Part shown: positions 2,207 to 63,015 of the stretch, in pieces
Position numbering within the stretch: position 1 is the stretch's first letter
Layout of the letters: each line of letters opens with the position of its first letter
Origin: Candidatus Moraniibacteriota bacterium
GTDB taxonomy: Bacteria > Patescibacteriota > Minisyncoccia > Moranbacterales > UBA2206
Direction: 5' to 3'
NCBI GenBank assembly: GCA_049303795.1
Contig: JBAQNM010000005.1
Location: 222,381-286,380, forward strand
Length of the DNA stretch: 64,000 nt
Program-made: the position numbers and the translations under genes
Notes under the pieces: model-generated
What the model was told of the DNA's origin: nothing
Seen by the model: only the letters and a program-made list of their open reading frames with translations
The model's database searches: none

Positions 2207-4132
2207 TTATTCTTTTTTATCTCCCTCTTTCGTCTCCGCATCCTTCACTTCCGATTCTGCTTTTGCTTCACCTTCTTTCGGAGCTTCTTCTGTTGCCCCT
2301 GGAGTAGGTTGCTCTGCTTGCGCCGCTTTATAAAGCTTCTCGCCAATCTTTTGCGCTTCGAGTGAAAGTTCTTCGGTGGCTTTTTTAATTGCTTCGCTGT
2401 CATCGCCATCTTTAACTTTTTTCAAAGCTTCAATTTTTTCTTCCACTGGTTTTTTCTCATCAGCAGTAATCTTATCTCCAGCATCACGCAAGGCTTTTTC
2501 AGTTGTGTAAACCAAAGTGTCGGCCATATTTTTCGCTTCAATTGATTCCTTCTTTTTCTTGTCTTCCTCAGCATGCACTTCAGCATCTTTTTTCATTTTC
2601 TCAATTTCTTCTTTGGAAAGTCCAGATGATGCTTCAATACGAATTGATTGCTCCTTGTTAGTTGCTTTATCTTTAGCTTTAACATTCAAAATTCCATTAG
2701 CATCAATATCAAACGTCACTTCGATTTGTGGAATACCACGAGGTGAGGGTGGAATACCATCAAGAATGAAACGTCCCAGAGTTTTATTATCAGAGGCCAT
2801 TTCTCTTTCTCCTTGCAAAACATGAATCTCCACGCTTGGTTGATTGTCAGCAGCAGTTGAGAAAACTTGAGATTTGGAAGTTGGGATAGTTGTATTGCGA
2901 TCAATTAGTGGCGTGCGCACTCCGCCCATTGTTTCAATTCCAAATGTTAATGGAGTCACATCAAGCAAAAGCACATCTTTCACATCACCTTGCAAAACTC
3001 CTCCTTGAATAGCAGCGCCCATGGCCACCACCTCATCAGGATTAACAGAAATATTTGGTTTTTTGCCAAAGAATTTTTCGACTGTTGCAAGTACCAATGG
3101 CATTCTAGTCATTCCTCCAACCAGCACGATTTCATTAATATCAGAAACACTCAACTTAGCATCGGCTAGCGCTTTTTTAGTTGGCTCCAAAGTCTTCGCC
3201 ACTAAATCACCTACTAATTCTTCTAGTTTTGCTCGTGTCAATTTCATCACCAAATGCTTTGGTCCATTGGCATCCGTAGTAATGAATGGCTGATTGATTT
3301 CTGTGTCCTGAGCAGTTGAAAGTTCAATCTTGGCTTTTTCCGCTGATTCTTTGATGCGTTGCAAAGCCAAAGGATCTTTGGACAAATCAATTCCTTCCTG
3401 TTTTTTGAATTCATCAATAATCCATCTGATAATCAATTGATCGAAGTCGTCTCCACCCAAATGTGTGTCGCCATTTGTTGATTTAACTTCAACAGTATCC
3501 TCGGAAACTTCCAAAATAGAAATATCAAAAGTTCCTCCACCCAAGTCATACACGGCGATTTTTTCATCTTTCTTTTTATTAAAACCATAAGCCAAAGCAG
3601 CTGCAGTTGGTTCGTTGATAATTCTACGTACATTTAGTCCGGCAATTTCTCCAGCTTCTTTGGTTGCCTTTCTTTGCGCGTCATCAAAATAAGCAGGAAC
3701 AGTAATCACGGCTTCTGTGATTTTCTCACCTAATTTTTCTTCTGCGTCAGCTTTCAATTTTGCCAAAATCATTGCAGAAATTTCTTGCGGAGTATAATCT
3801 TTATCTCCCATTGTCACTTTCACGCCGCCATTAGCTTTAACGATTTTATAAGGCATTAATTTCAAATCTCTTTGTACTTCTTCATCTTCAAATTTTCTTC
3901 CAATCAATCGTTTAATGGAAAATAAAGTATTTCCCGAATTGGTCACTGCCTGACGTTTAGCCAAAAGACCAACAAGACGCTCACCAGATTTGGAAATTGC
4001 CACCATGGAAGGTGTTGTACGATTACCTTCTTTGTTTTCAATTATAGTTGGTGAACCACCTTCTACAACTGACATTGCGGAATTGGTTGTTCCCAAGTCA
4101 ATTCCTAATATTTTTGCCATATTATTTTTCAA
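2207..4132 (-). CDS. dnaK: molecular chaperone DnaK (Hsp70)
   Basis: N-terminus [24 protein letters not shown], and a full-length 641 aa with an acidic C-terminal tail. Confidence 0.97.
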
Positions 4133-4259
4133 GTATTAGCTATATGTTTTTCAAAAAAACGCGTAGCAATACTTTTTGTTAATTTATAAATTTTTATCCT
4201 ATTAATTTAGGTCATCTGACCTATTGACTGACAAATTAATTTGTCAGTCTAAGGTCAGA

Positions 4260-4679
4260 TCACTCTTTGATCTTAACGGCGATTTTTTTCGGCTTCACCT
4301 CATCCGCTTTAGGAATAATAATTTTCAACATTCCCTTGGAAGAATGAGCGTCTGCCATGTCAGCCTTCACCGCCATTGGCAGAATTACCGAGCGAGCAAA
4401 GGATCCAGTGCGCACTTCTTTTCGATAGTAATCTTCGCGCTTCACCTCTTTCTTCTCTTCGGTCGAACCGGAAATAGTCAACACATCATTTTCAATCGAA
4501 ATTTCCACTTTTTCCGGATCAACGCCAGCGAGCGGAGTTTCCACAATCACGTTATCTTTGTCTTGATAAACATCCACTGCCGGAGTAAAATCCACCCCTT
4601 CAAACATCTCGTCCTCAAAAAATCTGTTAAGATCTCGCATTGGAGACCAATGAATAATTCCCCTGTTCATATTATTCAC
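4260..4679 (-). CDS. Hsp20/alpha-crystallin small heat-shock protein
   Basis: alpha-crystallin domain (..VDVYQDKDNVIVETPLAGV..LTISG..GMLKIIIPK). Confidence 0.85.
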   Translation of the reverse strand: MNNMNRGIIHWSPMRDLNRFFEDEMFEGVDFTPAVDVYQDKDNVIVETPLAGVDPEKVEISIENDVLTISGSTEEKKEVKREDYYRKEVRTGSFARSVILPMAVKADMADAHSSKGMLKIIIPKADEVKPKKIAVKIKE

Positions 4680-4732
4680 CTCCCTTCTAATTAAATTACT
4701 TTTTATCTAAACTTTTTTCAAAAAAATTATTT

Positions 4733-5299
4733 CTATCCCACAATCACTCTCGCCGCCCGAATCACCCTGTTATTAAGTTTATAGCCTTTCAGCACAACTT
4801 TTTTAATTTTATTTCCAGGCTCTTTTTCATCTTCTTCTTTTTTTGAGTCTTCCGCCTTTTGATTATCGGCAATTGCTTCGTGCAAATTCGGATCAAATTC
4901 ATCTCCCATTTTCACATCCATTTCAACAACTTCGTTTTCTTTCAAAATATTTTCCAATTGTTTTTGAATATACATTATTCCCACCACCCAAGCCGCCTCT
5001 TTTTGTTCTTCCGGAATATGCTCAGTAGCGCTACGGAAATTATCAATCACCGGCAACACTTGCAAAATTAAATCTTCCTTAATATATGCGCCGATATTTT
5101 TCTGATTTTCTTGTTGGCGTTTTTTATAATTCTCGAAATCAGAAAGACAACGCTTCCAGCCTTCCAGATATTCCTGCTCCTTGTTTTCAAAGACATCTTC
5201 GTTTTCAAGTTTTTCTGACACTTCAATGCTTTCTAATTTTTCTGCTTCAATATTTTCTTCAATTTTTTCATCTTCTTTTTTATTTTTTTTCTGCTTCAT
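4733..5299 (-). CDS. grpE: nucleotide exchange factor GrpE
   Basis: GrpE coiled-coil and beta-domain motifs (..YKKRQQENQKN..VLPVIDNF..GYKLNNRVIRAARVIV). Confidence 0.9.
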   Translation of the reverse strand: MKQKKNKKEDEKIEENIEAEKLESIEVSEKLENEDVFENKEQEYLEGWKRCLSDFENYKKRQQENQKNIGAYIKEDLILQVLPVIDNFRSATEHIPEEQKEAAWVVGIMYIQKQLENILKENEVVEMDVKMGDEFDPNLHEAIADNQKAEDSKKEEDEKEPGNKIKKVVLKGYKLNNRVIRAARVIVG

Positions 5300-5303
5300 G
5301 CTT

Positions 5304-6041
5304 TTAAATAAAATTTATTCCAATTAAAATTACTGCACTTGAACTTAATAATTTTTTCATATAATCCATTAGGGATTTATTTTTCGCATATTTCATCCGT
5401 TTTGGGCCAATAATTGCCAAGAGTCCTTTCTCACCTTCTTTTGTTTCGTAAGGGGAAACAATCATGGAGCAATTAGAAATACCTTTGATTGGATTTTCTT
5501 TGCCGATAAAAATTTTCGTTTCGCCAATTTTTATTTTTTGTAAAATTGTGTCGATATTCTCATCAATATAATCAAGCGCCTCTGCTACTTTGCAAAACTC
5601 ATCAATTTCTTGAAATTCCGGATTTTCCAATAGCTCACTCATTCCAAAATCATAAAATTCTTTTTCTATTCCCGTTACCGCCAAACTACCACTAAGTGAT
5701 GATAATAATTTTGCTGTTGAGCGGGATAGTCTAATGTTTTGCGCTTTTAATTTCAAAAGTTCTGCTTGCATATTTTTTTGCTCAGAGAGGGTCAACTCCT
5801 GCGCCGGCATAATTTCCGAAACAAAATAACGATAACCTCTGTCAGTCGGGATGCGTCCAGCGCTGGTATGTGGTTGATAGAGATAGCCGTCTTTTTCCAG
5901 TTCAGCCATATCATTTCTGATTGTTGCCGAGCTAAGGTCTTTGATATATTTTTCCGAGATAATCTTCGATCCAACTGGAACAGCTGAGGCGGTATATTCC
6001 TCTATCACTATTGCTAATATTTTTTGCAATCTATCTTCCAT
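5304..6041 (-). CDS. hrcA: heat-inducible transcription repressor HrcA
   Basis: N-terminal winged helix (ILAIVIEEYTASAVPVGSKII) and the HrcA family signature; first gene of the hrcA-grpE-hsp20-dnaK operon. Confidence 0.9.
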   Translation of the reverse strand: MEDRLQKILAIVIEEYTASAVPVGSKIISEKYIKDLSSATIRNDMAELEKDGYLYQPHTSAGRIPTDRGYRYFVSEIMPAQELTLSEQKNMQAELLKLKAQNIRLSRSTAKLLSSLSGSLAVTGIEKEFYDFGMSELLENPEFQEIDEFCKVAEALDYIDENIDTILQKIKIGETKIFIGKENPIKGISNCSMIVSPYETKEGEKGLLAIIGPKRMKYAKNKSLMDYMKKLLSSSAVILIGINFI

Positions 6042-6062
6042 ACTTCTATTATAACTATTGAG

Positions 6063-6089
6063 TTAGCAGTCGTCAAGCCTGAGTGCTAA
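6063..6089. promoter_or_regulatory. CIRCE operator (HrcA binding site) upstream of hrcA
   Basis: TTAGCAGTC-N9-GAGTGCTAA versus consensus TTAGCACTC-N9-GAGTGCTAA (one mismatch), about 20 nt upstream of the hrcA start. Confidence 0.8.
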
Positions 6090-6191
6090 TTACATTTTAT
6101 ACTACGTTTTTAAATTGTCAAGTATTTCAATTATAATCTAAAACGCCTTATAAAAAGGCGCTTTAGAAGATACAGTTTTTTAAAAAAATGC

Positions 6192-7217
6192 TTAAAGACC
6201 AGCCTTATTCTTATTTGCATTATGCTCATCTAATGTTCGAGAGAAAATCAAATTGCTATCAGCATCGCTTAAAAAATAATTGTAGTCTGTTATAGTTGGA
6301 TAAATTGCCGCTCTTATAGCCAATATTCCGGGATTTGAAATTGGTCCTGGTGGCAAGCCTTTATTTATATAGGTATTATAGGGCGAATCAACGCGAGTAT
6401 CTTCAAAGGAATATTGGAATTTTGGCTTAGGATCCTTAAAGACAAAACCTAGAGTCGCACAACTCTGCAGGCTTTGTAAATTTTTAATTCTATTCCAAAA
6501 TATACCAGCAATTATTTTTGCATCATTATCATCAACGCCTTTTTTATAATCAATCAATGCCTCTTTTTCAACAATTGAAGCCATAGTCACAATTTCAAAA
6601 ATTGTTTTTTTCTGATTTTTTATTTCACTCCTTAAATCATCTGTGACTTTTTTTTCAAAATTATCTAAAAATTTTCTGACAATATTCTCAGCAGTATCTT
6701 TCTTGGAATAAAAATAGGTATCAGGGTAAAGATAACCCTCGAGATTTTTTACTTTGTCAACTAGAAGAAAACTATAATCGCCAACTAGCTCGCCAGGATT
6801 ATTTACCAACGCTAAAAAACCATCCCCATCGAGACCCTTCTCATTTAATTTATTGGCAATTTCATCACTTCTTAACCCTTCTGGAAATGTAACCGAAATA
6901 AATTCTTTTTTCTCTTGAGTTATAGAATGCACTATTTCTGGAATAGTCATATTGCCCATTAGCACGTATGTTTCCGGCATAATTTTATTAAGCAGATGAT
7001 TGGTGTAGAGATAATAATAAAAGTAAATTTTTCCTGAAATCAACTTTTTCTCAACCAAATTATCAGCTATCAAGCTTATCCCCTCCCCCTTCTTTATTTC
7101 GAAAACTACAGAATCATTATTTTGACTATGAAAATAATAAACTTGATTACGAAAATAAAAAATTCCGCCAAGCAGAATGAAAATAAAAATAAGTCCTAAA
7201 AGTATTTTTTTGTTCAT
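6192..7217 (-). CDS. mltG: endolytic murein transglycosylase MltG (YceG family)
   Basis: N-terminal TM helix and the YceG signature ..SPYNTYINKGLPPGPISNPG.. Confidence 0.8.
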   Translation of the reverse strand: MNKKILLGLIFIFILLGGIFYFRNQVYYFHSQNNDSVVFEIKKGEGISLIADNLVEKKLISGKIYFYYYLYTNHLLNKIMPETYVLMGNMTIPEIVHSITQEKKEFISVTFPEGLRSDEIANKLNEKGLDGDGFLALVNNPGELVGDYSFLLVDKVKNLEGYLYPDTYFYSKKDTAENIVRKFLDNFEKKVTDDLRSEIKNQKKTIFEIVTMASIVEKEALIDYKKGVDDNDAKIIAGIFWNRIKNLQSLQSCATLGFVFKDPKPKFQYSFEDTRVDSPYNTYINKGLPPGPISNPGILAIRAAIYPTITDYNYFLSDADSNLIFSRTLDEHNANKNKAGL

Positions 7218-28889: not shown

Positions 28890-30041
28890 TTATGCATTTT
28901 TTCTCAACTCTTTCATTAAATCTACATAAAACTTCAAATTGTGAATAGCGGCAAGTCTCATTCCCAACATTTCTTTGGAAGAAAAAAGGTGATGCAAATA
29001 GGCGCGCGTATGATTTTTACAAAGCTCGCAATCGCAATTTTCTAAAATAGGTGAAAAATCATCTTTATATTTACCATTATTAATATTAATTGTTTCATAG
29101 AAAGTTTTACCCGCTTCAACATTAATAGCTTCGTTATCTTTTCGCAAAAATAATCTTCCGTGTCGCCCTTCTCTCGTTGGAATTACACAATCAAACATAT
29201 CCCAACCATAAGAAAAGCATTTTACAATATCTTCCGGCGTTCCCACTCCCAAGGCAAATCTGAGCGAATCTTCCGGAATATAGCTGGCGGTTTCCCTCAC
29301 CACTTCTTCCATAAATTTTCCCTCGGCATCAATATGCCTCGCGCCAAAACCATAACCATCCCAGCCTAAGGCTGGTCCGCCTTGGGCGGAAAAACCAATT
29401 TTTATTAATTCATCGGTGCAATGCTTTCTTAAATCTAGATATTGTCCTCCTTGGATAACACAAAAAATTAATGGTCGATCTTTTTCCTCAATTTTTCGCA
29501 ATTTTATTTGTCTTTTATACTCAATCATGCAACGATCAGCCCATCTAATTGTCCGCTCAACTGCTAAAGCGATTTTCTCTCGCGGATAATCATTCGGTGG
29601 TGGGTCATCCAAACATACCATCATATCCACGCCCAAATCAAATTGAATTTGAATCGCAATCTCGGGTGTTAGAATGTGTTTAGAGCCATCTGTCGGTGAA
29701 TGAAAAATAACCTCGTCATCCGTTATCTTTCCTAATTTTGGATTCTTATGAATCAATGAAAAAACTTGATAACCGCCAGAATCAGAAAGCAAAGGTTTTT
29801 CCCAATGCATAAATTTATGTGCGTCTCCTGCTTTTTTTATAATTTCCATTCCAGGATTGAGAAATAAATGATAGGTATTAATCAGTATTATCTCCAGCCC
29901 GATTTCATCCAGAATCCCATTATCAATCGAGCGAACAAATCCGCGCGTTGCCTCAGGCATAAAAAACGGAGTGCTAATCTCTCCGTTTTTAGTTATAATA
30001 CTACCTATTCTTTTTGATTTTTTAATTTCTACTTTAAACAT
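28890..30041 (-). CDS. tgt: queuine tRNA-ribosyltransferase (tRNA-guanine transglycosylase)
   Basis: LSDSGGYQVFSL, the catalytic Asp region, and the zinc site CxCxxC..H (CDCELCKNHTRAYLHHL). Confidence 0.9.
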   Translation of the reverse strand: MFKVEIKKSKRIGSIITKNGEISTPFFMPEATRGFVRSIDNGILDEIGLEIILINTYHLFLNPGMEIIKKAGDAHKFMHWEKPLLSDSGGYQVFSLIHKNPKLGKITDDEVIFHSPTDGSKHILTPEIAIQIQFDLGVDMMVCLDDPPPNDYPREKIALAVERTIRWADRCMIEYKRQIKLRKIEEKDRPLIFCVIQGGQYLDLRKHCTDELIKIGFSAQGGPALGWDGYGFGARHIDAEGKFMEEVVRETASYIPEDSLRFALGVGTPEDIVKCFSYGWDMFDCVIPTREGRHGRLFLRKDNEAINVEAGKTFYETININNGKYKDDFSPILENCDCELCKNHTRAYLHHLFSSKEMLGMRLAAIHNLKFYVDLMKELRKNA

Positions 30042-41700: not shown

Positions 41701-41882
41701 TCCAAACTCTGCTATACTTAGAATAATTCTAGGACTTATGCGTTTGGCGAGAAATTATTCGCTGTTAAGCCTTCCCAAGCAAGCCTAACTTTCAGTAAAC
41801 CCGGGATAAGCTAACTTAATTTCACAAATGTCGCTTTAATAATTTTAAGGCAAATGCATAAGTCCTAAACTACTAACCTATC

Positions 41883-45767: not shown

Positions 45768-48347
45768 TTATTTAAAACTCTTAACTATGCCCTGAAATTC
45801 ATCTCCTTTTTCTTCAAAATTCTTCCAAAGACTATAGCTTGGAGAAGCCATTGAAAGTAAGCATATTTTTCCAATCTTCGTATTCAAAAAAGCAAAATTG
45901 ACAGCTTCTTTCATGTTTTTTGTATGTATTGTTGTATATTTTTTGTTAGATTTTTGAAGAAGTATTTTTTCAATCTCTGTGCCGCTATCTGGAAAAAAAA
46001 CAATATTTCTTATTTTAGATTTATCAATTTCAATCGCCAAGCCAGAAAAATCATACCCTCGATTAAGCCCCCCTAAAAAAATCGTGTCCACATCGGAAAG
46101 TGTTTTGATTGCTTCAATAGTAGCCTCAGGAATTGTTGCGTTAGCATCATCATAAAATTTTATTCCCTTGAATTCTCCCACAAATTCCAAGCGATGCGGA
46201 AGATTTTTAAAACTTTCGACGCCTTTTTTAATTATCCTCTTTGGAATTTTTAGAATATTAGCAACAGCAATCGCCGCTTTGGCATTTTCCATATTATGCG
46301 CACCCAAAAGCGAAGCTTTTATATTTGCTAAATTAATTTTACTAAAATCATCTGTATTTGTTTTTTTAGCCCATTTTTTTAGCTCTTTATTTTTTCCATT
46401 ATATACAAAATGATCTTCGCGATTTTGAAAATTAATAATATTTTTTTTCGCTGCATAATATTTTTCAACACTGCCATGATAATTCATATGCTCAGGAAAA
46501 AGATTTATTACAACAGAAATATGTGGAGAGTATTTCAGATCATCTAGTTGATAGCTAGAAAGCTCTATGATAAAAATTTCATTCTCATCAATCGGTTTTA
46601 ATAAAACTTCCAACATCGGACTGCCAATGTTACCAATCAAGCGCACCTTCTTCCCGGCCTCTTTTAGAATGGCATAAATCAAAGAGGCTGTCGTGCTTTT
46701 CCCCTTACTTCCGGTCACTCCAATCGTAATATTTTTTATTTGCGAGAAAAAGATGTTAGTCGCCGTAGTATAAGGAATTTTAACCAAATTTTTATTTATT
46801 CCCGGTGATTTTATTGCAAAATCGCAATCTTCCTGTCTTTTTAGGTAATTCTTGTCTAACTTTTGGTCAGCAATAATATATTCTTTTTTTGGATAAAGTT
46901 TTTTTAAAAATTTTAAACTAGCCCTACCTTCAAGCCCATAGCCTAAGATCAATATTTTTCGCCTATCTTCAAAATCATCCAACTCTATACTTGTTTTTTT
47001 AATCATAGCGAGAAATTTTTCAGGAATATTGTTTTCTTCTGAAAAGCCTAATAATTTTTTACTTAAACCTATTTGATCTATTTTTTCAAATAATCCCACT
47101 TTTTCAAAAAATTTAATAACCCCAGCATCTCCAAATTCATTTTTTAAATAAGTCTTTCTTAAGGCCAACTTCATTTCTTCTGCTGTTCCCACACACTCAA
47201 AGGGTTTTATTCTTTTTAAACCTAATAATTCTTCAAATGTTGGCAATAATTTTTTATCCTCAAACAAACTCTTACCAAAAATATCCAACAATTCTTTTTT
47301 AGAAAGATAAGCAGAAAGCATCGTGAAAACAAATACACATTTAGGACAGTGTCCACACCATCTCTTGCCTACTAGATCATCTTTTATTTTAAAATTGGCG
47401 TTACAGCTAGAAAAAGTTTTAAAATATTTTTTATATTTGGAAAAAATCTCCACGATTTTGATTTCACTCAAAGGACGTAGAATTGAAAAGTATAAAACAT
47501 CAGTAGCTATATATTCTTTGACATAATTAGAAAACATTTTTTCAGCCAAAAAAGATTTACTCCACTGATGATTAACCCATCTGCCTAAATATTCTATATT
47601 ACCCTGGCTGGCACTATTTTCGTTAGCAGAAATGATATAACGATAATCATAGATAACAGCTGTAAAAAGACCGATAAATGCCCATTGCAGAGAAACTGGC
47701 ACATGCCCATTATATGCGTCTGGCTTATTTCTGAATTCTAATAATTTTTTATCTAATTCTCTTTTTACCACTATCTTTTTTCCGCCCACCAATGCGGCAA
47801 CTTCTTTTTGAATCTCGGCTTCATTAACAGAAAAAACAGTAAAATCTTTCGCAATTTTTTTCAAGAGTTCCATCGCTACAATAGAATCTTTGCCTCCACC
47901 ATTCATCACAAGCAATCGATCCTGCATTTTTGTTTTTATTGCTTTAGGTTTGTATTTATCATCATAAGAAAAATTAACTAGCCCACGATAATCGATTTTA
48001 TTTTTATAAAAAAATTCACCCATCCCCTCGGTATAAACTAAATTCCAAAATTCAGCCTGCTGCTTAGAAAGTTTAATATTATTTAAAATTATTTTTGAGG
48101 GACAATAAATCTTCCAATAGCTTAAGCCTAAAACCAAATGCAAACCGTCTAATATATTTTTTTGCAAATTTTCATCGAGCTTATTTTCCAAAAAGCCTTT
48201 TTTTGGAAAATATAAGGTTTCACAAAACATATATTTATCTGTTCCTTTTTTCAATCCATAATCAAAAGACAAAGTTGCCTTTGTCTTATCAATTCTATAG
48301 CCTAAAAACTCAAAAATTCCTCCGGTTTGCTTCATATTTTTACCCAT
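45768..48347 (-). CDS. bifunctional fusion: N-terminal PP-loop ATP-pyrophosphatase-like domain (MurL-like?) + C-terminal Mur ligase (MurD-type UDP-MurNAc-L-Ala:Glu ligase)
   Basis: N-terminal about 450 aa with SGGxDS-type PP-loop (LVMNGGGKDSIVA) and a CGHCPKC cysteine cluster. C-terminal about 400 aa with a Mur ligase P-loop GVTGSKGKSTTASL and MurD-like layout (ILILGYGLEGRA.. N-terminal Rossmann). Confidence 0.6.
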   Translation of the reverse strand: MGKNMKQTGGIFEFLGYRIDKTKATLSFDYGLKKGTDKYMFCETLYFPKKGFLENKLDENLQKNILDGLHLVLGLSYWKIYCPSKIILNNIKLSKQQAEFWNLVYTEGMGEFFYKNKIDYRGLVNFSYDDKYKPKAIKTKMQDRLLVMNGGGKDSIVAMELLKKIAKDFTVFSVNEAEIQKEVAALVGGKKIVVKRELDKKLLEFRNKPDAYNGHVPVSLQWAFIGLFTAVIYDYRYIISANENSASQGNIEYLGRWVNHQWSKSFLAEKMFSNYVKEYIATDVLYFSILRPLSEIKIVEIFSKYKKYFKTFSSCNANFKIKDDLVGKRWCGHCPKCVFVFTMLSAYLSKKELLDIFGKSLFEDKKLLPTFEELLGLKRIKPFECVGTAEEMKLALRKTYLKNEFGDAGVIKFFEKVGLFEKIDQIGLSKKLLGFSEENNIPEKFLAMIKKTSIELDDFEDRRKILILGYGLEGRASLKFLKKLYPKKEYIIADQKLDKNYLKRQEDCDFAIKSPGINKNLVKIPYTTATNIFFSQIKNITIGVTGSKGKSTTASLIYAILKEAGKKVRLIGNIGSPMLEVLLKPIDENEIFIIELSSYQLDDLKYSPHISVVINLFPEHMNYHGSVEKYYAAKKNIINFQNREDHFVYNGKNKELKKWAKKTNTDDFSKINLANIKASLLGAHNMENAKAAIAVANILKIPKRIIKKGVESFKNLPHRLEFVGEFKGIKFYDDANATIPEATIEAIKTLSDVDTIFLGGLNRGYDFSGLAIEIDKSKIRNIVFFPDSGTEIEKILLQKSNKKYTTIHTKNMKEAVNFAFLNTKIGKICLLSMASPSYSLWKNFEEKGDEFQGIVKSFK

Positions 48348-49935: not shown

Positions 49936-50958
49936 TTATTTATTTGAAATATATTCTGCCATCTCAACAAAACGATTTGAATATCCCCATTCGTTGTCAT
50001 ACCACCCAATAACTTTCACTAATTTTCCATTAGCCATTGTAAGAGGCAAATCCACAATAGCACTATTCGGATTACCTTTAAAATCCATTGAGACTAATTC
50101 CTCCTCGCTCACTGCCAAAATATTTTTCAAACCATTAACTGAAGCTTCCGAAAAAGCATTGTTGATTTCTTCTACTGTAACATCTTTTTTCAATATACCC
50201 ACAAAATCAGTTACGGAAACAACAGGAGTGGGAACTCGCATCGATATGCCATTTAAATTTCCCTCCATACCCTTAAGTGCTTTTGCCACTGTTTTTGCTG
50301 CACCTGTTGTGGTTGGGATAATATTTAGTCCAGCGGATCGAGCTTCACGCAAATCCTTACTGGGAAGGTCCAGGATACGCTGACTATTCGTATATGAATG
50401 AACGGTTGTTAAAAAACCTTTCTCTACGCCAAAATTATCATCCAAAACTTTTATCATTGGCGCTAAACAATTAGTCGTGCAAGATCCATTGGAAATAATC
50501 GCCTCGTCCTTATATTCATTCTCGTTCACACCCAAAAGATACACGGGGGTATCGTCTTTTGCGGGCGCAGATAAAATAACTTTTTTTGCGCCAGCATCAA
50601 TATGCTTCTGAGCTCCTTCCTGACTGTTAAAAACACCGCTACATTCCAAAACCACATCCACTCCCAAATCTTTCCATGGCAAATCGTTAGGATCAGTTTC
50701 CATATAATACTTTATTCTTGTTCCATCAACAATCAATTCAGAATTTTCCTCATCCACTGAAATCTCCTTATCATATTGTCCGTAGCTTGAATCATGCTTC
50801 AAAAGATGCGCAACAGTCTTAATGTCCGTCAGATCGTTTATCGCAACGACTTCAATATCTTCTTTTTCAAACGCAATTTTAAATGATGGCCGACCAACTC
50901 TTCCAAAACCATTGATAGCAATTTTAATCATAAATTTATTATTTAAAAAATTATTCAA
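49936..50958 (-). CDS. gap: glyceraldehyde-3-phosphate dehydrogenase
   Basis: NGFGRIGR-type NAD motif (INGFGRVGR) and active site ASCTTNCLAP. Confidence 0.92.
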   Translation of the reverse strand: MNNFLNNKFMIKIAINGFGRVGRPSFKIAFEKEDIEVVAINDLTDIKTVAHLLKHDSSYGQYDKEISVDEENSELIVDGTRIKYYMETDPNDLPWKDLGVDVVLECSGVFNSQEGAQKHIDAGAKKVILSAPAKDDTPVYLLGVNENEYKDEAIISNGSCTTNCLAPMIKVLDDNFGVEKGFLTTVHSYTNSQRILDLPSKDLREARSAGLNIIPTTTGAAKTVAKALKGMEGNLNGISMRVPTPVVSVTDFVGILKKDVTVEEINNAFSEASVNGLKNILAVSEEELVSMDFKGNPNSAIVDLPLTMANGKLVKVIGWYDNEWGYSNRFVEMAEYISNK

Positions 50959-53001: not shown

Positions 53002-53955
53002 TCATTTTATTTTGCAAACTCGTTCCAGCTCAGCAATATCCTCATTAGAGAAAGTAAGCTTTTCCATATTTTGATCACCCATCAAATAATACATAATTGA
53101 TTTTGGATTCTCAACATGTCCCATCCCCAAGCTATGCCCCAATTCATGAATAAGTGTCATGCGTAAATCAGCAACTTGCCTAAATTGATAAATATTAATT
53201 TCCGTCCCAGCATTAACGCCCTTTTCAAACTCCTGAGCTGTTCCATATTTTTCTTTGTAGGTTGATACGTTTGAGTTATAATCATCAACCACTTTTTTTT
53301 CTTGCGAAGCTAAGGCATTAGCTTTTTTGGCAAGTTCATTAACTTCAGCCTGCTCTTTTTGTAATTTATCATAAAAAATATCTAGATCTTTTCTTTCTTT
53401 TTGCAAATCATCCAAATCATTTTGAGATGTTTTATCGCTTTCATTCCATTTTTCAACATCTTTATTATATTGTTTCAATTGATTTTCATATTTAGCTACA
53501 CTAGAGTTATAACTTGCCAAGGCTTTATTATAGCTAATACTTAAAGCATCGTATTGATTATTAATCTTATTTTGTGATAATTTAAGTTGTTCTAGATTTG
53601 TTTCCAGCTCGTCTGTTTCATTTGACTGAATTTGCCTATCATCAAAAATCAAATTAATTTTAAAGCTGGCTTTAGGATTATAGAAAAATACCTTTCTTTC
53701 AAGCTGACCACTCCAAATATTCTGCGCCTCATCAATAATTTTCAAAAAAGAAGCTTCGTCAATGTTAAAGCGTGGGTCAATAATGCCTATTGAATATTCT
53801 ATTGGTTTCGAACACGGTAAACCTAATCCTGTAAATTCTTGGATTTTATTGCCTATCTTTACAGCTTGTTTATTTACCTCAACTTTGTTTTTAAAAATTA
53901 TTCCCCAAACAGAAAAAAGTAGAATAATTATTAGATATTGAAAAAATTTTTTCAT
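53002..53955 (-). CDS. membrane-anchored zinc metalloprotease (matrixin/M10-like HExxHxxGxxH) with a coiled-coil region
   Basis: HELGHSLGMGH zinc-binding motif plus Met-turn (SIMYY); N-terminal TM helix. Confidence 0.6.
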   Translation of the reverse strand: MKKFFQYLIIILLFSVWGIIFKNKVEVNKQAVKIGNKIQEFTGLGLPCSKPIEYSIGIIDPRFNIDEASFLKIIDEAQNIWSGQLERKVFFYNPKASFKINLIFDDRQIQSNETDELETNLEQLKLSQNKINNQYDALSISYNKALASYNSSVAKYENQLKQYNKDVEKWNESDKTSQNDLDDLQKERKDLDIFYDKLQKEQAEVNELAKKANALASQEKKVVDDYNSNVSTYKEKYGTAQEFEKGVNAGTEINIYQFRQVADLRMTLIHELGHSLGMGHVENPKSIMYYLMGDQNMEKLTFSNEDIAELERVCKIK

Positions 53956-53978
53956 TCTTTATAACAACAAATAAGATT

Positions 53979-57189: not shown

Positions 57190-58305
57190 ATGAAAATAAC
57201 AACCTCCATAAAACATACTAACAAAAAGAATATTCTTGCTCTCGGCGCCGAATCCGCTGGAAATTTTTCGGTTTTTAAGAATGGTGAAATTTATTTCTCT
57301 GAAGATTTTGGCGACTTATTAGAAGAAACTAATTGGGAGAATTATCAGATTTCAGTTTTAACTTACTTAAAAACTAACCAGATTAAGCCAGAAATAATTC
57401 TAACTGATCTTCATCCCCTATACAAAACTACGACTTGGGGAAAAGAACTAGCTAAGAAATATCACGCAAAACTTCTTCCAATTCAGCATCATCATGCTCA
57501 TATTTTTTCTGTTATTGGAGATAAAATGCTTTATTCTAAGAGCTACAAGTCAAAAACTACAAACTATGGCATTGCCATGGATGGTACTGGATATGGTACA
57601 GATGAAAAGATTTGGGGCGGAGAAGTATTTAAAGTTAAGGGAAAAGAAATTCTAAGAATCGGACATTTGGAAAATCAAATTATACTTGGTGGAGATTTAG
57701 CTGTCAAAGAGCCAGCTAGAATGTTAATTGGAGTGTTAAGTAAAATATTAAGCAACAAAGAAATCTACCCTTTCATCAGAAAATATTATACCAGAAATCA
57801 ATTTGAATTATTATACAATCAGCTCTCGCAAAATTTTAACTGCCAAGAAACTTCTAGCACTGGAAGAATTTTAGACGCTGTTTCTTTACTTTTAGGTTTT
57901 TGTAATAATGAAAGAAAACACAAGCACGAACCAATTAATTTGCTAGAAAAAAATTCAACTGTTCCCTATTCTGATTTAATACCAAAAATAATTTTTGATG
58001 AAAAAGAAAAAATATATATTTTACAAACTACTCCACTTTTTAAATATTTAATTAAAAATATAAATAAAGACAAGAAAAAATTAGCTGCCACGGCGCAACT
58101 TTACATTGCTAAAGGTTTATACGAAATTATAAAATTGAAAACTAAAAGCCAGAAACCAGAAACTTTTTTTATTTCTGGTGGTATATCAAATAATAAAATA
58201 ATTTCTTCTTTCTTGGAGTCCAAAGGCGCATATGTAAATAAAAAAATCCAACGTGGTGACGCCGGACTTTCTTTTGGGCAAGTTGTTAAATACTTATTAA
58301 ATTAG
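57190..58305 (+). CDS. HypF C-terminal Kae1/TsaD-like carbamoyltransferase domain as a stand-alone protein
   Basis: ..LALGAESAGNF.., ..DLHPLY.., ..LPIQHHHAHIFSV.., ..AMDGTGYGTDEKIWGGEV.. match the HypF C-terminal domain; no acylphosphatase, Zn-finger or YrdC domains. Confidence 0.6.
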   Translation: MKITTSIKHTNKKNILALGAESAGNFSVFKNGEIYFSEDFGDLLEETNWENYQISVLTYLKTNQIKPEIILTDLHPLYKTTTWGKELAKKYHAKLLPIQHHHAHIFSVIGDKMLYSKSYKSKTTNYGIAMDGTGYGTDEKIWGGEVFKVKGKEILRIGHLENQIILGGDLAVKEPARMLIGVLSKILSNKEIYPFIRKYYTRNQFELLYNQLSQNFNCQETSSTGRILDAVSLLLGFCNNERKHKHEPINLLEKNSTVPYSDLIPKIIFDEKEKIYILQTTPLFKYLIKNINKDKKKLAATAQLYIAKGLYEIIKLKTKSQKPETFFISGGISNNKIISSFLESKGAYVNKKIQRGDAGLSFGQVVKYLLN

Positions 58306-59320: not shown

Positions 59321-60355
59321 TTATTCGGTGAAACGAAAATTAATACTACAACTCCCCTCCCTCGAAACCATGCACGCGCCTTGCGGATTTTCCGGTGTGC
59401 AAACTTTTCCAAAAAGTGGACAATCTTTTGATTCAATTAATCCTTGCAAAACCTCACCACAACGACAAACACTTTTTTTAGGTTTGATTTCTTTTTTTAT
59501 TTTTACAATCATCTCTCGATGAATAAATTCCGCGTCTTGCAATTGATATTTTTTTCGAATTTTTAGTCCGGAATTTTTGATTTCTCCCAAACCTCGCCAA
59601 GAAGCATTTCTAACTTCAAAAACTTCGGAAATTAAATCTAACGCTTTTTTGTTTCCATCCTTTTTCACTAGTCTCGTATATTCATTTTCAACTTTTTTTT
59701 CTCCAGCAATTATTTGCTTCAAAAGCATTTCAATCGCCAGAAGAACATCTTCTGCGCTAAATCCAGCTACCACCTGTGGGATTGGAAATTTTTCATAGAC
59801 TTCTGTGCCGATAATTGCACTGACGTGTCCTGGATTAATAAATCCGTCGATTTTGATTTTATTATTTTTCAGTAGCGCCTCCATTGCTGGCGGAAAAAGT
59901 TTGTGCGACGAAAAAACTGTAAGCTTATTTTGAATTCCCCAAGCCGTCATCACAGTTGTTGTTTCAAAGCCAATTCCCCAAAAAACTAAATTGGGAATTT
60001 TTTTGGAAAGCTCCAGCGCTTCAGTTACATCATAAACAATATGCACTTGTGCGCCCTCTTGCCTGGCATTTTCCAAGCTTCCCAAACTCCCTGGAATATT
60101 AGTGGCGTCGCCATAGCAAGCAATCGGAATACCTGAAAGTGCCAGGCCAGTTACCACATCAATTTCACTTTGATCAGTCACACAAACCGGACAACCCGGA
60201 CCAGTAATCAGTTTTATATTTTCCGGCAAAATATTTTTTATTCCGTGCTTGGCAATCGCCTCACTGTGCGTTCCGCAAAGTTCCATAAAACGAAGTGGCC
60301 GATTTATTTTTTCAGCTTTAGTTTGAATATTTTTTAATATTTTTTTATAATCCAT
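59321..60355 (-). CDS. hypD: hydrogenase maturation protein HypD
   Basis: CGTH, GPGCPVC, and C-terminal FeS Cys motifs. Confidence 0.85.
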   Translation of the reverse strand: MDYKKILKNIQTKAEKINRPLRFMELCGTHSEAIAKHGIKNILPENIKLITGPGCPVCVTDQSEIDVVTGLALSGIPIACYGDATNIPGSLGSLENARQEGAQVHIVYDVTEALELSKKIPNLVFWGIGFETTTVMTAWGIQNKLTVFSSHKLFPPAMEALLKNNKIKIDGFINPGHVSAIIGTEVYEKFPIPQVVAGFSAEDVLLAIEMLLKQIIAGEKKVENEYTRLVKKDGNKKALDLISEVFEVRNASWRGLGEIKNSGLKIRKKYQLQDAEFIHREMIVKIKKEIKPKKSVCRCGEVLQGLIESKDCPLFGKVCTPENPQGACMVSREGSCSINFRFTE

Positions 60356-60542
60356 ATTCAGATAGTTTTTCAACATAATCCTTCTCCATCTTTTCAATCG
60401 CAAAACCGGCATGCACCATCACATAATCACCAACCTTAACATCAACGATGCTTATATTTATTTCTTTTTGCACGCCCTGAAACTCAACTGTTGCCAGATG
60501 GTTATTGATTTTTATGATTTTTCCTGGAATTGCTAGGCACAT
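60345..60542 (-). CDS. hypC: hydrogenase maturation protein HypC
   Basis: N-terminal MCLAIPGK. Confidence 0.8.
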   Translation of the reverse strand: MCLAIPGKIIKINNHLATVEFQGVQKEINISIVDVKVGDYVMVHAGFAIEKMEKDYVEKLSEYGL

Positions 60543-60543
60543 A

Positions 60544-60664
60544 ATTCAGAACCACAGATTATCACATGAATTCACATGATTTCACTGATTATATTATAAT
60601 TAATTATTTTGACTTTAAAATTCAGTGCTTTCAGGATAATCAGTGTTAATCAGTGGTTCTGAAT
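60544..60664. promoter_or_regulatory. about 120-bp imperfect palindrome filling the whole hoxU-hypC intergenic space, built from 10-bp-periodic TGATTAnCAC-like units in inverted orientation
   Basis: attcagaaccac (60544-55) with gtggttctgaat (60653-64) as perfect 12-bp termini. Inside, agattatcac / atgaattcac / atgatttcac on the left mirror aggataatca / gtgttaatca on the right. Confidence 0.55.
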
Positions 60665-61714
60665 TTTCCCTATTTTTATTTTCTCCTTATCCCTCGCTAA
60701 CCTCGCCACTTCGCGCTCACTAAGCACATAATCTAAATACTTGTCTATATTTTTCTTTTTGTCTATTTTGGAAGAAATAAAAAATACAACAATATCTTTC
60801 GGATTTATTTTTTCACGCTTAGCATATTCCGTTTTAACATTTTCGATAACTTCGTCTTCCGATTTTTCCTTTTCTAATTTTATAATCTTCTCGAAACCCA
60901 AATCTGAAAGCAACTTATTTAAATTCTTTTCCGGTTTTATTTTTTGTGTTTGCGCTAAAACTTTTTCCTCTATTTCAAAATCCAAAACCGCCACCGAAAA
61001 CTTTTTGAGATCATCCAGAATCTCTACTATTTTTCTATAATCATTCTGATCAGTAAGCGCTGCAGTGGGACATGCTCGCACACAACGCCCACAAAAACTA
61101 CAATCCAGAACTTCCTCATAGGGCGTCCCAACAACGACCGCGCCTCCTCGCAGATTAAACCCAAACTTTTTTTCCGGACAAATATTAATACATCTTCGAC
61201 ATTCAATACAAAGTTCGCTATTCCTGGAAATACACGGATTTTCATTTTCCACAACTACCCGCGACCAATTATCACGAATCAAGCCCAACTCTTCTTGCCC
61301 GGTTATTTCTCCTTTCCTCGGAATGAAATGAAAATTTTCAATTTTATATTCCAACGCCAAATTTTGCAATTCGCACATTTGATTTTTCTTGCAAGTCGCG
61401 CATTTTCCAGCGTGATCTGCCCAAAGCAGTTCTAGATTTATTCTTCTGGCTTTGTTTATATCTTCACTTTCCGTAATCACTTCCATCCCGTCTTTAACTT
61501 TCAAGATGCAGGAAGGCTGTAAACTCGTACGGACAGGTTTTAAACCTGTCCCTCCACTTCTTATTCCCACCAAACACAAGCGGCAAACCGCTCCGCGCAA
61601 AAGATCTTCAAAAGCACAAAGTGTGGGAATTCTAATTTCATTTTTTCGACACACATCCAAAACAGACTCCCCGAGCTTAGCTGTATATTTTTTATTGTTG
61701 ATTTTTATTTGCAT
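60650..61714 (-). CDS. HoxU/NuoG-N-terminal-like diaphorase iron-sulfur subunit (2Fe-2S + 4Fe-4S clusters)
   Basis: 2Fe-2S ferredoxin Cys pattern (C..C..C..C), a His/Cys 4Fe-4S motif (CATCKKNQMC) and two CxxCxxCxxxCP ferredoxin motifs. Confidence 0.7.
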   Translation of the reverse strand: MQIKINNKKYTAKLGESVLDVCRKNEIRIPTLCAFEDLLRGAVCRLCLVGIRSGGTGLKPVRTSLQPSCILKVKDGMEVITESEDINKARRINLELLWADHAGKCATCKKNQMCELQNLALEYKIENFHFIPRKGEITGQEELGLIRDNWSRVVVENENPCISRNSELCIECRRCINICPEKKFGFNLRGGAVVVGTPYEEVLDCSFCGRCVRACPTAALTDQNDYRKIVEILDDLKKFSVAVLDFEIEEKVLAQTQKIKPEKNLNKLLSDLGFEKIIKLEKEKSEDEVIENVKTEYAKREKINPKDIVVFFISSKIDKKKNIDKYLDYVLSEREVARLARDKEKIKIGKIQNH

Positions 61715-61724
61715 AAATAAAAAT

Positions 61725-62912
61725 TTAAAATATTTCTAATTTTTCCACCGCGTCTCGAAATGCTGTTGCCGCAAACTTCCCCAAAGGACAAAAAGTCGTA
61801 TTTTCCAATGTCCATAAAATATCATTGACTGCTATTTTATCACGATCAGAAATTTTCCCATCCTGCAAACGCTGTGCGATTTCATCGAGACGAAAAGTTC
61901 CTTCCCGACACGGCACACACTTTCCGCAAGATTCCCGCCGAAAAAAACCAGACCAAGACAATAATAGCTCGTAAATATTAACTGTTTTATCTACCACTAA
62001 AATTGCTCCGGATCCAGTCACAGGAACATCTAATTCTTTTTCTAGAAATAATTTACCTGACGCTCCCCCAACTTGAGCAAACCAAAATTCTTTTCCTCTT
62101 TGCACGCCTCCGCCCAATTCCTCTATCGCCTCTCTTATTGTAATATTCATCGATGCCTCAAAAACTCCCTGCTTTTTTACTGCGCCACCAAGTATAAATA
62201 GCTTAGGATTAATTTTAGCATATTTTTTTCCACCATTTTTAATAATCCAGGGAATATTAGCAATTGTTTCGGCATTATTCACGACTGTCGGCTTACCAAA
62301 AAGACCACATTCTGTTGGATATGGCGGACGAATCTTCGGCTCTCCCCGATTACCTTCGATAGAATTTATCAATGCCGTTTCTTCACCGCAGATATAAGCG
62401 CCAGCTCCAGAAAAAATTTCCACTTCCAAGGAATATTCGGCGTCTAATATTTTATTTCCCAAAAACTTATTTTCATGCGCTTGAATGATTGCCTGCTCTA
62501 AAATTATTTTAGCTTTTTCATAATTACCATTAAGATAGATGTAGGCTTTTTTTGCGCCGATCGTAAGCGCAGAAATGATTATTCCTTCCAAAATTAAATG
62601 AGGATTATTTTCTGCAAGCATTCTGTCTTTATATGTTCCCGGTTCTGATTCATCCAGATTACAAATAAAATATTTTTCCTTGCTTTTTTGTGCCATAGCT
62701 AACTCCCATTTTGCACCTGTTGAAAAACCCGCACCACCCCTTCCGCAAAGTCCAGAAAGTTTTATTTCCTCCAAGGCTTTTTGTGAATTAATTTTCGAAA
62801 TAAACTTCTTAAAGGCTTCATATCCGCCAACCTTTAAATAGTCCTCAATTTTCAAAGGATTAATTTTGCCCCAATGTTCAGTTATTATTTTTATATTATC
62901 CATGTTTGTCAT
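61725..62912 (-). CDS. HoxF/NuoF-like NAD(P)H-binding flavoprotein subunit (start probably ATG at 62912 or 62903, not the track's GTG at 62927)
   Basis: GLCGRGGAGFSTGAKW (FMN/NADH site) and ESCGKCVPCREG 4Fe-4S motif. Confidence 0.85.
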   Translation of the reverse strand: MTNMDNIKIITEHWGKINPLKIEDYLKVGGYEAFKKFISKINSQKALEEIKLSGLCGRGGAGFSTGAKWELAMAQKSKEKYFICNLDESEPGTYKDRMLAENNPHLILEGIIISALTIGAKKAYIYLNGNYEKAKIILEQAIIQAHENKFLGNKILDAEYSLEVEIFSGAGAYICGEETALINSIEGNRGEPKIRPPYPTECGLFGKPTVVNNAETIANIPWIIKNGGKKYAKINPKLFILGGAVKKQGVFEASMNITIREAIEELGGGVQRGKEFWFAQVGGASGKLFLEKELDVPVTGSGAILVVDKTVNIYELLLSWSGFFRRESCGKCVPCREGTFRLDEIAQRLQDGKISDRDKIAVNDILWTLENTTFCPLGKFAATAFRDAVEKLEIF

Positions 62913-63015
62913 TCCCGTCCCGAGCACTCGGGACGGGAATCTAGTATGAAAATTTAAAATTTATGACCGGATTCCCGTTGGAATTTATCCTCGTGAAACA
63001 GGGGCGAGAATGACA
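62907..63015. mobile_element. MITE-like GC-rich intergenic element with about 17-24-bp imperfect terminal inverted repeats and an internal perfect 14-bp hairpin
   Basis: Termini tgtcattcccgtcccgag and ctcgtgaaacaggggcgagaatgaca (reverse complement tgtcattctcgcccctg..). Internal attcccgtcccgag-ca-ctcgggacgggaat (62911-40) and gattcccg repeat. Sits exactly between hoxE and hoxF. Confidence 0.4.

Follow-up and report, generated by a model that had tools for sequence, protein, structure and literature searches.

The palindrome between hoxU and hypC is probably one copy of a MITE-like, non-coding and apparently mobile family of repeats (here family X) and not a hydrogenase-specific control site, a reading to which we give a probability of about 0.75. 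The window, by which we mean the whole 64,000-nucleotide stretch that was analysed, comes from a host that protein searches place in Candidatus Moraniibacteriota, and its minus strand carries hoxE, hoxF, a hoxU-like gene, hypC, hypD and hypE in that order. The element belongs to family X, whose copies are dispersed, are present at some orthologous sites and absent from others, and follow a strict rule of location; at hoxU the copy has itself become the source of the stop codon. Family X is specific to Moranbacteria and related Patescibacteria, and the hoxU-hypC element is apparently a genome parasite or passenger.

The palindrome is imperfect and occupies window positions 60543-60665. Its parts and the two genes that it touches are as follows.

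60543-60665, no strand: whole element (family X copy), 123 bp including AATT at each end
60547-60661, no strand: element from CAG to CTG, 115 bp
60543-60546, no strand: AATT flank, repeated at 60662-60665
60547-60592, plus strand: 'A' arm, facing hypC; CAGAAC followed by CACAGATTAT, CACATGAATT, CACATGATTT, CACTGATTAT
60593-60620, no strand: A+T-rich central loop, differing in length and sequence among copies
60621-60661, minus strand: 'B' arm, the 5' arm in the hox-hyp transcript; CAGAAC, CACTGATTAA, CACTGATTAT, CCTGAAAG, CACTGAATTT
60662-60665, no strand: second AATT flank, within the hoxU reading frame (..AAA ATT / CAG..)
60650-61714, minus strand: HoxU-like 2Fe-2S/4Fe-4S diaphorase subunit, 354 aa (Pfam Fer2_4 and NADH-G_4Fe-4S_3)
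60650-60652, minus strand: hoxU stop codon TGA, from the terminal motif CAG AAC CAC TGA (..Q N H, stop)
60345-60542, minus strand: hypC, 65 aa, MCLAIPG... (Pfam HupF_HypC on an identical protein)
60540-60542, minus strand: hypC start codon ATG, directly adjoining 60543, 4 nt past the CTG terminus

The termini had been described in the original prediction as perfect 12-bp inverted repeats, and indeed ATTCAGAACCAC at 60544-60555 is matched perfectly by its reverse complement at 60653-60664, with no other occurrence in the 64-kb window; the inverted repeat reaches further than that, to 23 nt at 91% complementarity (60543-60565 against 60643-60665). The direct units of about 10 bp that were said to face inverted copies are likewise real. 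Each arm holds four units of the form CAC(n)TGATT, making eight phased units in all, and those on the plus strand start at 60553, 60563, 60573 and 60583. The motif CACWGATTA occurs four times in the 64 kb, against 0.82 expected, every time within the palindrome, and none of 100 shuffled sequences reached four. A profile of family X (nhmmer) recovered 60547-60661 on both strands (E values of 3e-18 and 2e-12) as its sole match, and the window holds exactly one copy of the family, which is 100% identical in two further loci, L120 and L121.

Folding of the minus-strand transcript, which had been proposed as a check, yielded a long hairpin of about -39 kcal/mol with a z-score of about -5.5 (-39.4 and -39.3 kcal/mol on the two strands, z of -5.5 and -5.6, with none of 200 shuffled sequences as stable). 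When Rfam was searched at gathering and at permissive thresholds, the palindrome had no match at gathering score; below threshold it drew only generic long-hairpin microRNA-precursor models, at 15-24 bits against thresholds of 46-211. No terminator-like site or tail was found at the palindrome.

The palindrome had also been said to abut both neighbouring genes. That is correct for hypC, whose ATG directly adjoins position 60543, leaving no space for a Shine-Dalgarno sequence between the CTG terminus and the start codon. It is not correct for hoxU: the stop codon lies inside the right arm, so that the palindrome spans the whole spacer together with the last five hoxU codons (K I Q N H), and the element supplies the last three of these codons as well as the stop (CAG AAC CAC TGA). 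Because HoxU proteins of relatives without the element end in ..EGKI(R/K)(M/I/L), the ..IGKIQNH end of the protein in the window is derived. The same in-element stop is used by 8 of 43 copies, the window copy included.

By pairing termini, we identified 80 full copies of family X at 58 distinct sites in genomes and metagenomes of Moranbacteria and other Patescibacteria. A first scan used a 17-mer from the terminus, TTCAGAACCACWGATTA, against one genome per species (596 Gb) and gave 119 genome matches, with repeated matches in Candidatus Moranbacteria and other Patescibacteria on up to five contigs per genome (UBA4824). BLAST with the whole element found full-length or half copies at Moranbacteria and Patescibacteria loci only, and a metagenome scan with a longer terminal pattern added 65 further loci. 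A copy-number search for the 120-bp element, another of the suggested checks, thus ends at 58 distinct sites beside unrelated genes, the outcome that points to a MITE. Many other matches to the 17-mer (in Acinetobacter, Flavobacterium and others) were chance or coding matches without a second arm, of which about 100 or more are expected by chance. A scan of viral contigs for the terminus gave five matches, all of them a coding coincidence in a phage gene (..GSVVISGSV..), and BLAST against plasmids and phages gave just one 38-bp A+T-rich chance match.

Copies range from 67 to 203 bp with a median of about 100 bp and fall into size classes near 92, 104, 115 and 160 bp, the differences in length lying mostly in the central part. 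Conserved termini, (T)CAGAACCACTGATTA...TAATCAGTGGTTCWG(A), bound every copy, and each arm contains about four CAC(n)TGATT units spaced by 10-11 bp. Termini, CAC blocks and TGATT blocks are near-invariant across the family, with variable bases between the blocks and a variable central loop. The two arms differ consistently from each other, which makes the ends distinguishable, except that A and B calls are unreliable in the subfamily of about 160 bp, where the scores are nearly tied and nothing is built on them. The 10-bp periodicity stressed in the original prediction is therefore a conserved feature of the whole family; as judged from the sequences, it probably reflects recognition by a protein, most simply a transposase.

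Some copies and relatives of the family depart from this pattern. At L048 4138-4191, inside an open reading frame at 3398-6322, one X arm lies in frame within an isoleucyl-tRNA synthetase gene and is translated as ..KIRTTDSHMKTHDCTEH.. G+C-rich mini-palindromes (CCGCCAGCTGGCGG, CCCGCCTGCCGGCGAGGCAGG) are nested in copies at L069 357-469, L151 3068-3190 and 5927-6090, and L168 9552-9750, which suggests that another small repeat inserts into X. Degenerate relatives of the terminus (CAGAATCACAGATTAACCTGATTTC..) occur in two assemblies labelled Desulfamplus (L067 7611-7660; L083 273-320 and 947-1029), and typical copies occur in three contigs labelled Bdellovibrionales (L030, L048 and L058); these may represent binning or labelling errors, or a wider host range.

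Nearly every copy occupies the space from a stop codon to the next ATG. At 52 classifiable sites the flanking genes are co-directional in 43 cases, convergent in 7 and divergent in 2. Read along transcription, the upstream gene ends within the element or at a stop codon 1-7 nt (mode 2) before its terminus, and in 38 of 43 copies the downstream ATG follows the other terminus after 3-8 nt (mode 6, in 20 copies). The neighbouring genes are functionally unrelated, encoding RuvB, a pilus ATPase, an ABC transporter, isoleucyl-tRNA synthetase, POR subunits, ATP synthase and hydrogenase, with fmt, adk, glyA, rplI, rmlA and a desulfoferrodoxin gene among the others. Junctions without an element in the same operons overlap or measure at most 16 nt, and any tolerated insertion therefore becomes the whole spacer. 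The typical spacer is a palindromic TAA-ATTT-ATG, which is why an X copy looks like the entire intergenic region. The headline of the original prediction, that the palindrome makes up all of the hoxU-hypC spacer, is thus explained without invoking function, since insertions that do not destroy a gene fill these tiny junctions.

Overall, the arms show no bias in orientation, the A end being downstream in 24 copies and upstream in 19. A terminal variant is nevertheless polar along transcription: among the 43 co-directional copies, 18 read CAGAACC...GGTTCAG and 2 read CTGAACC...GGTTCTG (p = 0.0004), the 18 usually continuing with AC (for example L139 853-944 and L157 1366-1457). This polarity of 18:2 counts against a plain cut-and-paste model, which does not predict it.

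Comparison of orthologous junctions revealed gain, loss and replacement, and the presence of X differs among orthologous as well as unrelated sites, in line with the MITE that the original prediction had listed as one option. At porD-porA, X is present in L119 and the junction is empty (TAA TT ATG) in its close relative L045; since the more distant L053 and L167 carry an orthologous copy (the loops of L119 and L053 are 87% identical), L045 seems to have lost its copy cleanly. At porG-porD, L139 has an empty site (ATATAAATTTATGG) and L119 and L147 carry an element (ATATAAAT[X]AAATTTATGG). The junction holds an X of 90 bp in the opposite arm orientation in L166, an X of 91 bp in the same orientation as L119 and L147 in L176, and an unrelated palindrome in L160. 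In L151 (11007-11017) the same junction reads TAAATCAGATATTTATG, the canonical empty junction plus CAGAT-like bases, possibly a sign that X was lost through recombination between CAGA ends, or an excision footprint.

At hoxU-hypC itself, the junction is empty in L125 (TAA ATTT ATG), whose HoxU is 82% identical to that of the window, and contains three different palindromic elements in L122, L123 and L126 (HoxU 87%, 82% and 77% identical, respectively). L156, with a HoxU only 64% identical and an outgroup to these four relatives, carries an X that is nearly identical to the window copy, is oriented alike and likewise supplies the stop codon from within. Between the window and L156 the arms are 95-98% identical, the flanks 66-78% and the loop 76%, and some orthologous copies show arms that have changed less than the coding DNA around them, with loops drifting. 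Neutral decay would not produce such an excess of arm over flank conservation, which calls either for constraint on a resident copy or for an independent and recent insertion into that same junction. The empty-site junction TAAATTTATG, a palindrome composed of stop, ATTT and start, was found at two independent X targets (L125 3155-3164 and L139 6076-6085). This sequence also occurs three times in the window, against 0.78 expected, at sites 29808-29819 (which reads CATAAATTTATG on both strands) and 50929-50938; these sites may be unoccupied targets.

Prokaryotic MITEs are 50-800 bp long, with terminal inverted repeats of at least 10-15 bp and a target-site duplication of 2-10 bp (PMC11602168). 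Family X lies within this size range, the window copy measuring 115-123 bp and having no open reading frame of its own, and it shows terminal inverted repeats, dispersed copies and presence or absence at orthologous sites. For target duplication, exactly matching flanking 4-mers were found in 3 of 43 copies, the window copy being one of them, and matching 3-mers in 6 of 43; a test of 2-9 bp with offsets against shuffled pairings gave no signal (z < 2), although a target this constant and A+T-rich would hide a real duplication from the shuffle control. The AATT flanks of the window copy may represent a target duplication of 4 bp or may simply prolong the inverted repeat, and the clean empty and filled pair at porG-porD is compatible with a 4-bp AAAT duplication, other readings fitting it equally well. 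A search of about 0.7 Mb of family-bearing loci, covering open reading frames beside solo ends, pairs of termini at IS-like distances, and 718 open reading frames clustered all-against-all for a multi-copy transposase, revealed no autonomous partner or transposase that shares the termini.

Other classes of element were considered and set aside. A REP or REPIN identity was rejected on the grounds that there is no GTAG or CGTC tag, that the arms contain no internal palindrome and that no RAYT-like multi-copy open reading frame occurs among the family-bearing loci. A structured regulatory RNA of the Rfam type was rejected on the missing gathering-score match and on the behaviour of the predicted pairs, described below. 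Fur, DnaA, parS and LexA boxes were rejected by eye, the matches being partial and the genomic distribution unfitting.

Our reading of family X as a mobile repeat suggests how the present junction could have arisen. The family would land in, or survive only in, the very short A+T-rich spacers of compact genomes. An element would have entered the hoxU-hypC junction and, then or later, about 12 bp of the native hoxU 3' end would have been lost along with its stop codon; in a simple scenario, insertion into TAAATTTATG would have preceded a deletion, between two AAATT repeats, of these approximately 12 bp. As it stands, hoxU runs three codons into the element and ends at the element's TGA. The 10-bp units would be putative transposase-binding sites, and the hoxEFU-hypCDE transcript would contain a stable hairpin. 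Translation of hypC may then be coupled to termination on hoxU, given that the stem ends 4 nt before the hypC AUG and that its base must be melted by the terminating ribosome.

The same geometry lends itself to a different account, which we regard as possible but unlikely, in which long palindromes of several unrelated families are first tolerated and later kept at stop/start junctions of these minimal genomes and the hairpin in the mRNA joins the stop codon to an AUG without a Shine-Dalgarno sequence, the ribosome reinitiating across the stem. The terminating ribosome would melt the stem base, in a bacterial analogue of ribosome shunting, and the conserved arms, the 2-nt and 6-nt distances and the polar subfamily would reflect selection on translation and not transposition.

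We also find it rather improbable that the palindrome is an intercistronic RNA hairpin retained by the host, whatever its origin, for the role of the stem in polycistronic mRNA. Such a stem might bring stop and AUG together for coupling of genes that have no Shine-Dalgarno sequence, serve RNase III processing, or stabilize the mRNA as REP and Correia elements do. The predicted hairpin is highly stable and its geometry tight, the stop preceding the stem by about 2 nt and the ATG following by about 6 nt, too close for a Shine-Dalgarno sequence, but a constant target (TAAATTTATG) would produce such constant distances even if they serve no function. AGGAGG-type sites do occur in relatives at the first genes of operons, unlike at the downstream genes of elements. 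Although the arms are conserved above flanks and loops in orthologous copies, compensatory changes are absent from all 21 predicted pairs, which are invariant but for a few changes that break pairing, and several mismatches in the stem are themselves conserved. The RNA-processing hairpin of the original prediction therefore stands as a predicted structure in the hox-hyp transcript but gains no compensatory support for its pairing. Several unrelated palindromic families occupy the same type of junction, and the same operons recur as occupied (POR, ATP synthase, ABC transporter and hox/hyp), yet the junction works empty in the close relatives L125, L045 and L139. Similarly, one subfamily is polar along transcription but arm orientation overall is unbiased (19:24), and the absence of an Rfam match and of a terminator-like site also speaks against a retained hairpin.

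Very improbable, in our view, is that the element acts as a portable outward promoter. Read outward, the A arm contains TGTGATAAT, an extended -10 lookalike about 7 nt inside the terminus, which would give hypC its own transcript with a very short leader. GTGAAA, 16 nt and TG-GATAAT in this arm form the sole minus-strand promoter-like match in 60300-60900 and point at hypC, but the match is 9 of 12 and not above chance, the five promoter-like sites of the region are also within chance (2.8 +/- 1.7 expected), and the pattern may not be that of the host. GATAAT is the commonest variant in start-side arms, yet the base that creates it is the most variable position of the family (GTTAAT, GCTAAT and GGTAAT also occur). 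Two orthologous copies (L023 and L040) separate divergent genes, each ATG lying about 10 nt from its terminus, with no other room for a promoter, and the CTG-end subfamily almost always has its A end toward the downstream gene; across all copies, however, the A end is downstream in 24 and upstream in 19. Promoters made at element ends have a precedent in Correia elements (PMC2649163).

The leading idea of the original prediction, an array of operators or iterons through which an H2- or redox-responsive regulator would control the hyp genes, is scarcely credible: the eight phased, sequence-conserved CAC(n)TGATT units do resemble protein-binding sites on one helix face, and some occupied operons are redox-related (hydrogenase, POR, desulfoferrodoxin), but copies also lie beside fmt, adk, glyA, rplI, rmlA, IleRS, ruvB and ATP synthase genes that share no function with them, the 64-kb window has no isolated motif outside the element, most copies sit inside operons after a stop codon and not in promoter regions, and hoxU-hypC is empty or filled with unrelated palindromes in relatives whose HoxU is 77-87% identical.

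X is not the only palindrome in these operons. A second, unrelated family, Y, fills the hoxE-hoxF spacer (window 62907-63015, 109 bp). The element is bounded by TGTCATTCCCG...CGAGAATGACA, one end forms a perfect hairpin of 14 bp (ATTCCCGTCCCGAG/CTCGGGACGGGAAT), and ATTCCCG..CGGGAAT hairpins at each end make it look more REPIN-like than X. Family Y abuts the hoxE stop codon (63016), and its terminal AATGACA offers an alternative ATG for hoxF, whose annotated start differs between two loci that otherwise do not differ (392 aa in L120 against 395 aa in L121). The same family also fills other hox/hyp junctions in L122, L123 and L126. At least four further palindromic families occur in stop-to-start spacers of the same operons in relatives, at the following positions.

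L123, 1574-1686 and 2926-3000: further palindromes
L126, 166-277, 2926-3000 and 4063-4206: further palindromes
L160, 1951-2068: further palindrome

The arms of these palindromes are also made of short periodic units (AATTTTCAATT.., CATATTAACA.., TTACGAAT..), and it seems that junction elements in these genomes generally have arms built of phased short repeats. Elsewhere in the window there are two long inverted repeats, one at 41730-41867 (30-nt arms, 83%, spanning 138 bp) just upstream of a 1183-aa open reading frame and one at 45810-45961 (27-nt arms, 81%, spanning 152 bp), neither with an Rfam match at gathering score. Two genes are unusual for hydrogenase clusters: a HypF-like gene by hypE (57190-58305, plus strand) that encodes just 371 aa with the C-terminal HypF domains only, and a Peptidase_M10 gene (about 53005-53958, minus strand) between the genes for the NiFe-hydrogenase small and large subunits, both calls being based on Pfam marks of the identical locus L120.

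As a kind of element, MITEs and palindromic repeats are well known (PMC10969869, PMC2229807). Family X is a new family of this kind, in a lineage for which we found none described: the searchable literature yielded no report of MITE-like repeats in bacteria of the candidate phyla radiation. The genomes of its hosts measure about 1 Mb and contain hardly any intergenic DNA, and in them several palindromic families repeatedly colonize the same stop/start junctions of a few nucleotides, altering gene 3' ends and coexisting with expression of the operon. This bears on the survival of selfish DNA in streamlined genomes, on the translation of downstream genes that have no ribosome-binding site, and on gene calling in metagenome-assembled genomes, where starts and stops inside repeats are easily mis-set, as in the case of hoxF. 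The hoxU-hypC element should not be read as a hydrogenase regulatory site. For a specialist, the explanation of this striking sequence is an ordinary one, and what is noteworthy is the junction rule, the colonization by several families and the polarity.

Among known repeats, bcr1 of the Bacillus cereus group is reportedly a dispersed element of about 155 bp with a stable RNA structure that inserts at the A+T-rich pentanucleotide TTTAT. We take it not to be a full-length palindrome with phased subterminal units, and presumably it has no sequence relation to X.

The Correia elements of Neisseria (CREE or NEMIS) resemble X in being non-coding palindromes of about 100-155 bp with long terminal inverted repeats and many copies; they are often co-transcribed with flanking genes, can provide promoters at their ends and can be bound or cleaved by RNase III (PMC10969869, PMC2649163). 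Both have size classes that arise from internal deletions. The two are unrelated in sequence. A TA target duplication and an IHF site characterize Correia elements (PMC10969869); in X the subterminal units are phased at 10 bp, a duplication is not demonstrable and the stop-to-start location is far stricter. The MITE Chunjie of Geobacter uraniireducens likewise has copies of variable size with conserved inverted repeats, according to what PMC10969869 relates of a 2008 study. One notable insertion into an operon is reported for it in that account (PMC10969869), whereas for X insertion between stop and start within operons is the rule, at 43 of 52 sites. X often supplies the stop codon as well, and the two differ in phylum and sequence.

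REP, BIME and REPIN sequences, associated with RAYT, are similar to X as long-lived extragenic hairpin palindromes that lie in operons without obvious target duplications (PMC3116915, PMC3733652). REPs are G+C-rich palindromes of 20-40 bp with a GTAG or CGTC tag, and a REPIN consists of two in inverted orientation (PMC3733652, PMC3116915); the arms of X, by contrast, are non-palindromic, untagged and A+T-rich. Finally, the Rickettsia palindromic elements are small palindromes of reduced genomes that add codons inside reading frames (PMC10969869), and X makes a comparable coding contribution in the C-terminal QNH and stop of HoxU and in the half-copy that lies in frame inside IleRS. Rickettsia palindromic elements typically form in-frame peptide segments inside genes, whereas X is overwhelmingly intergenic and makes contact with coding sequence at the 3' end only.
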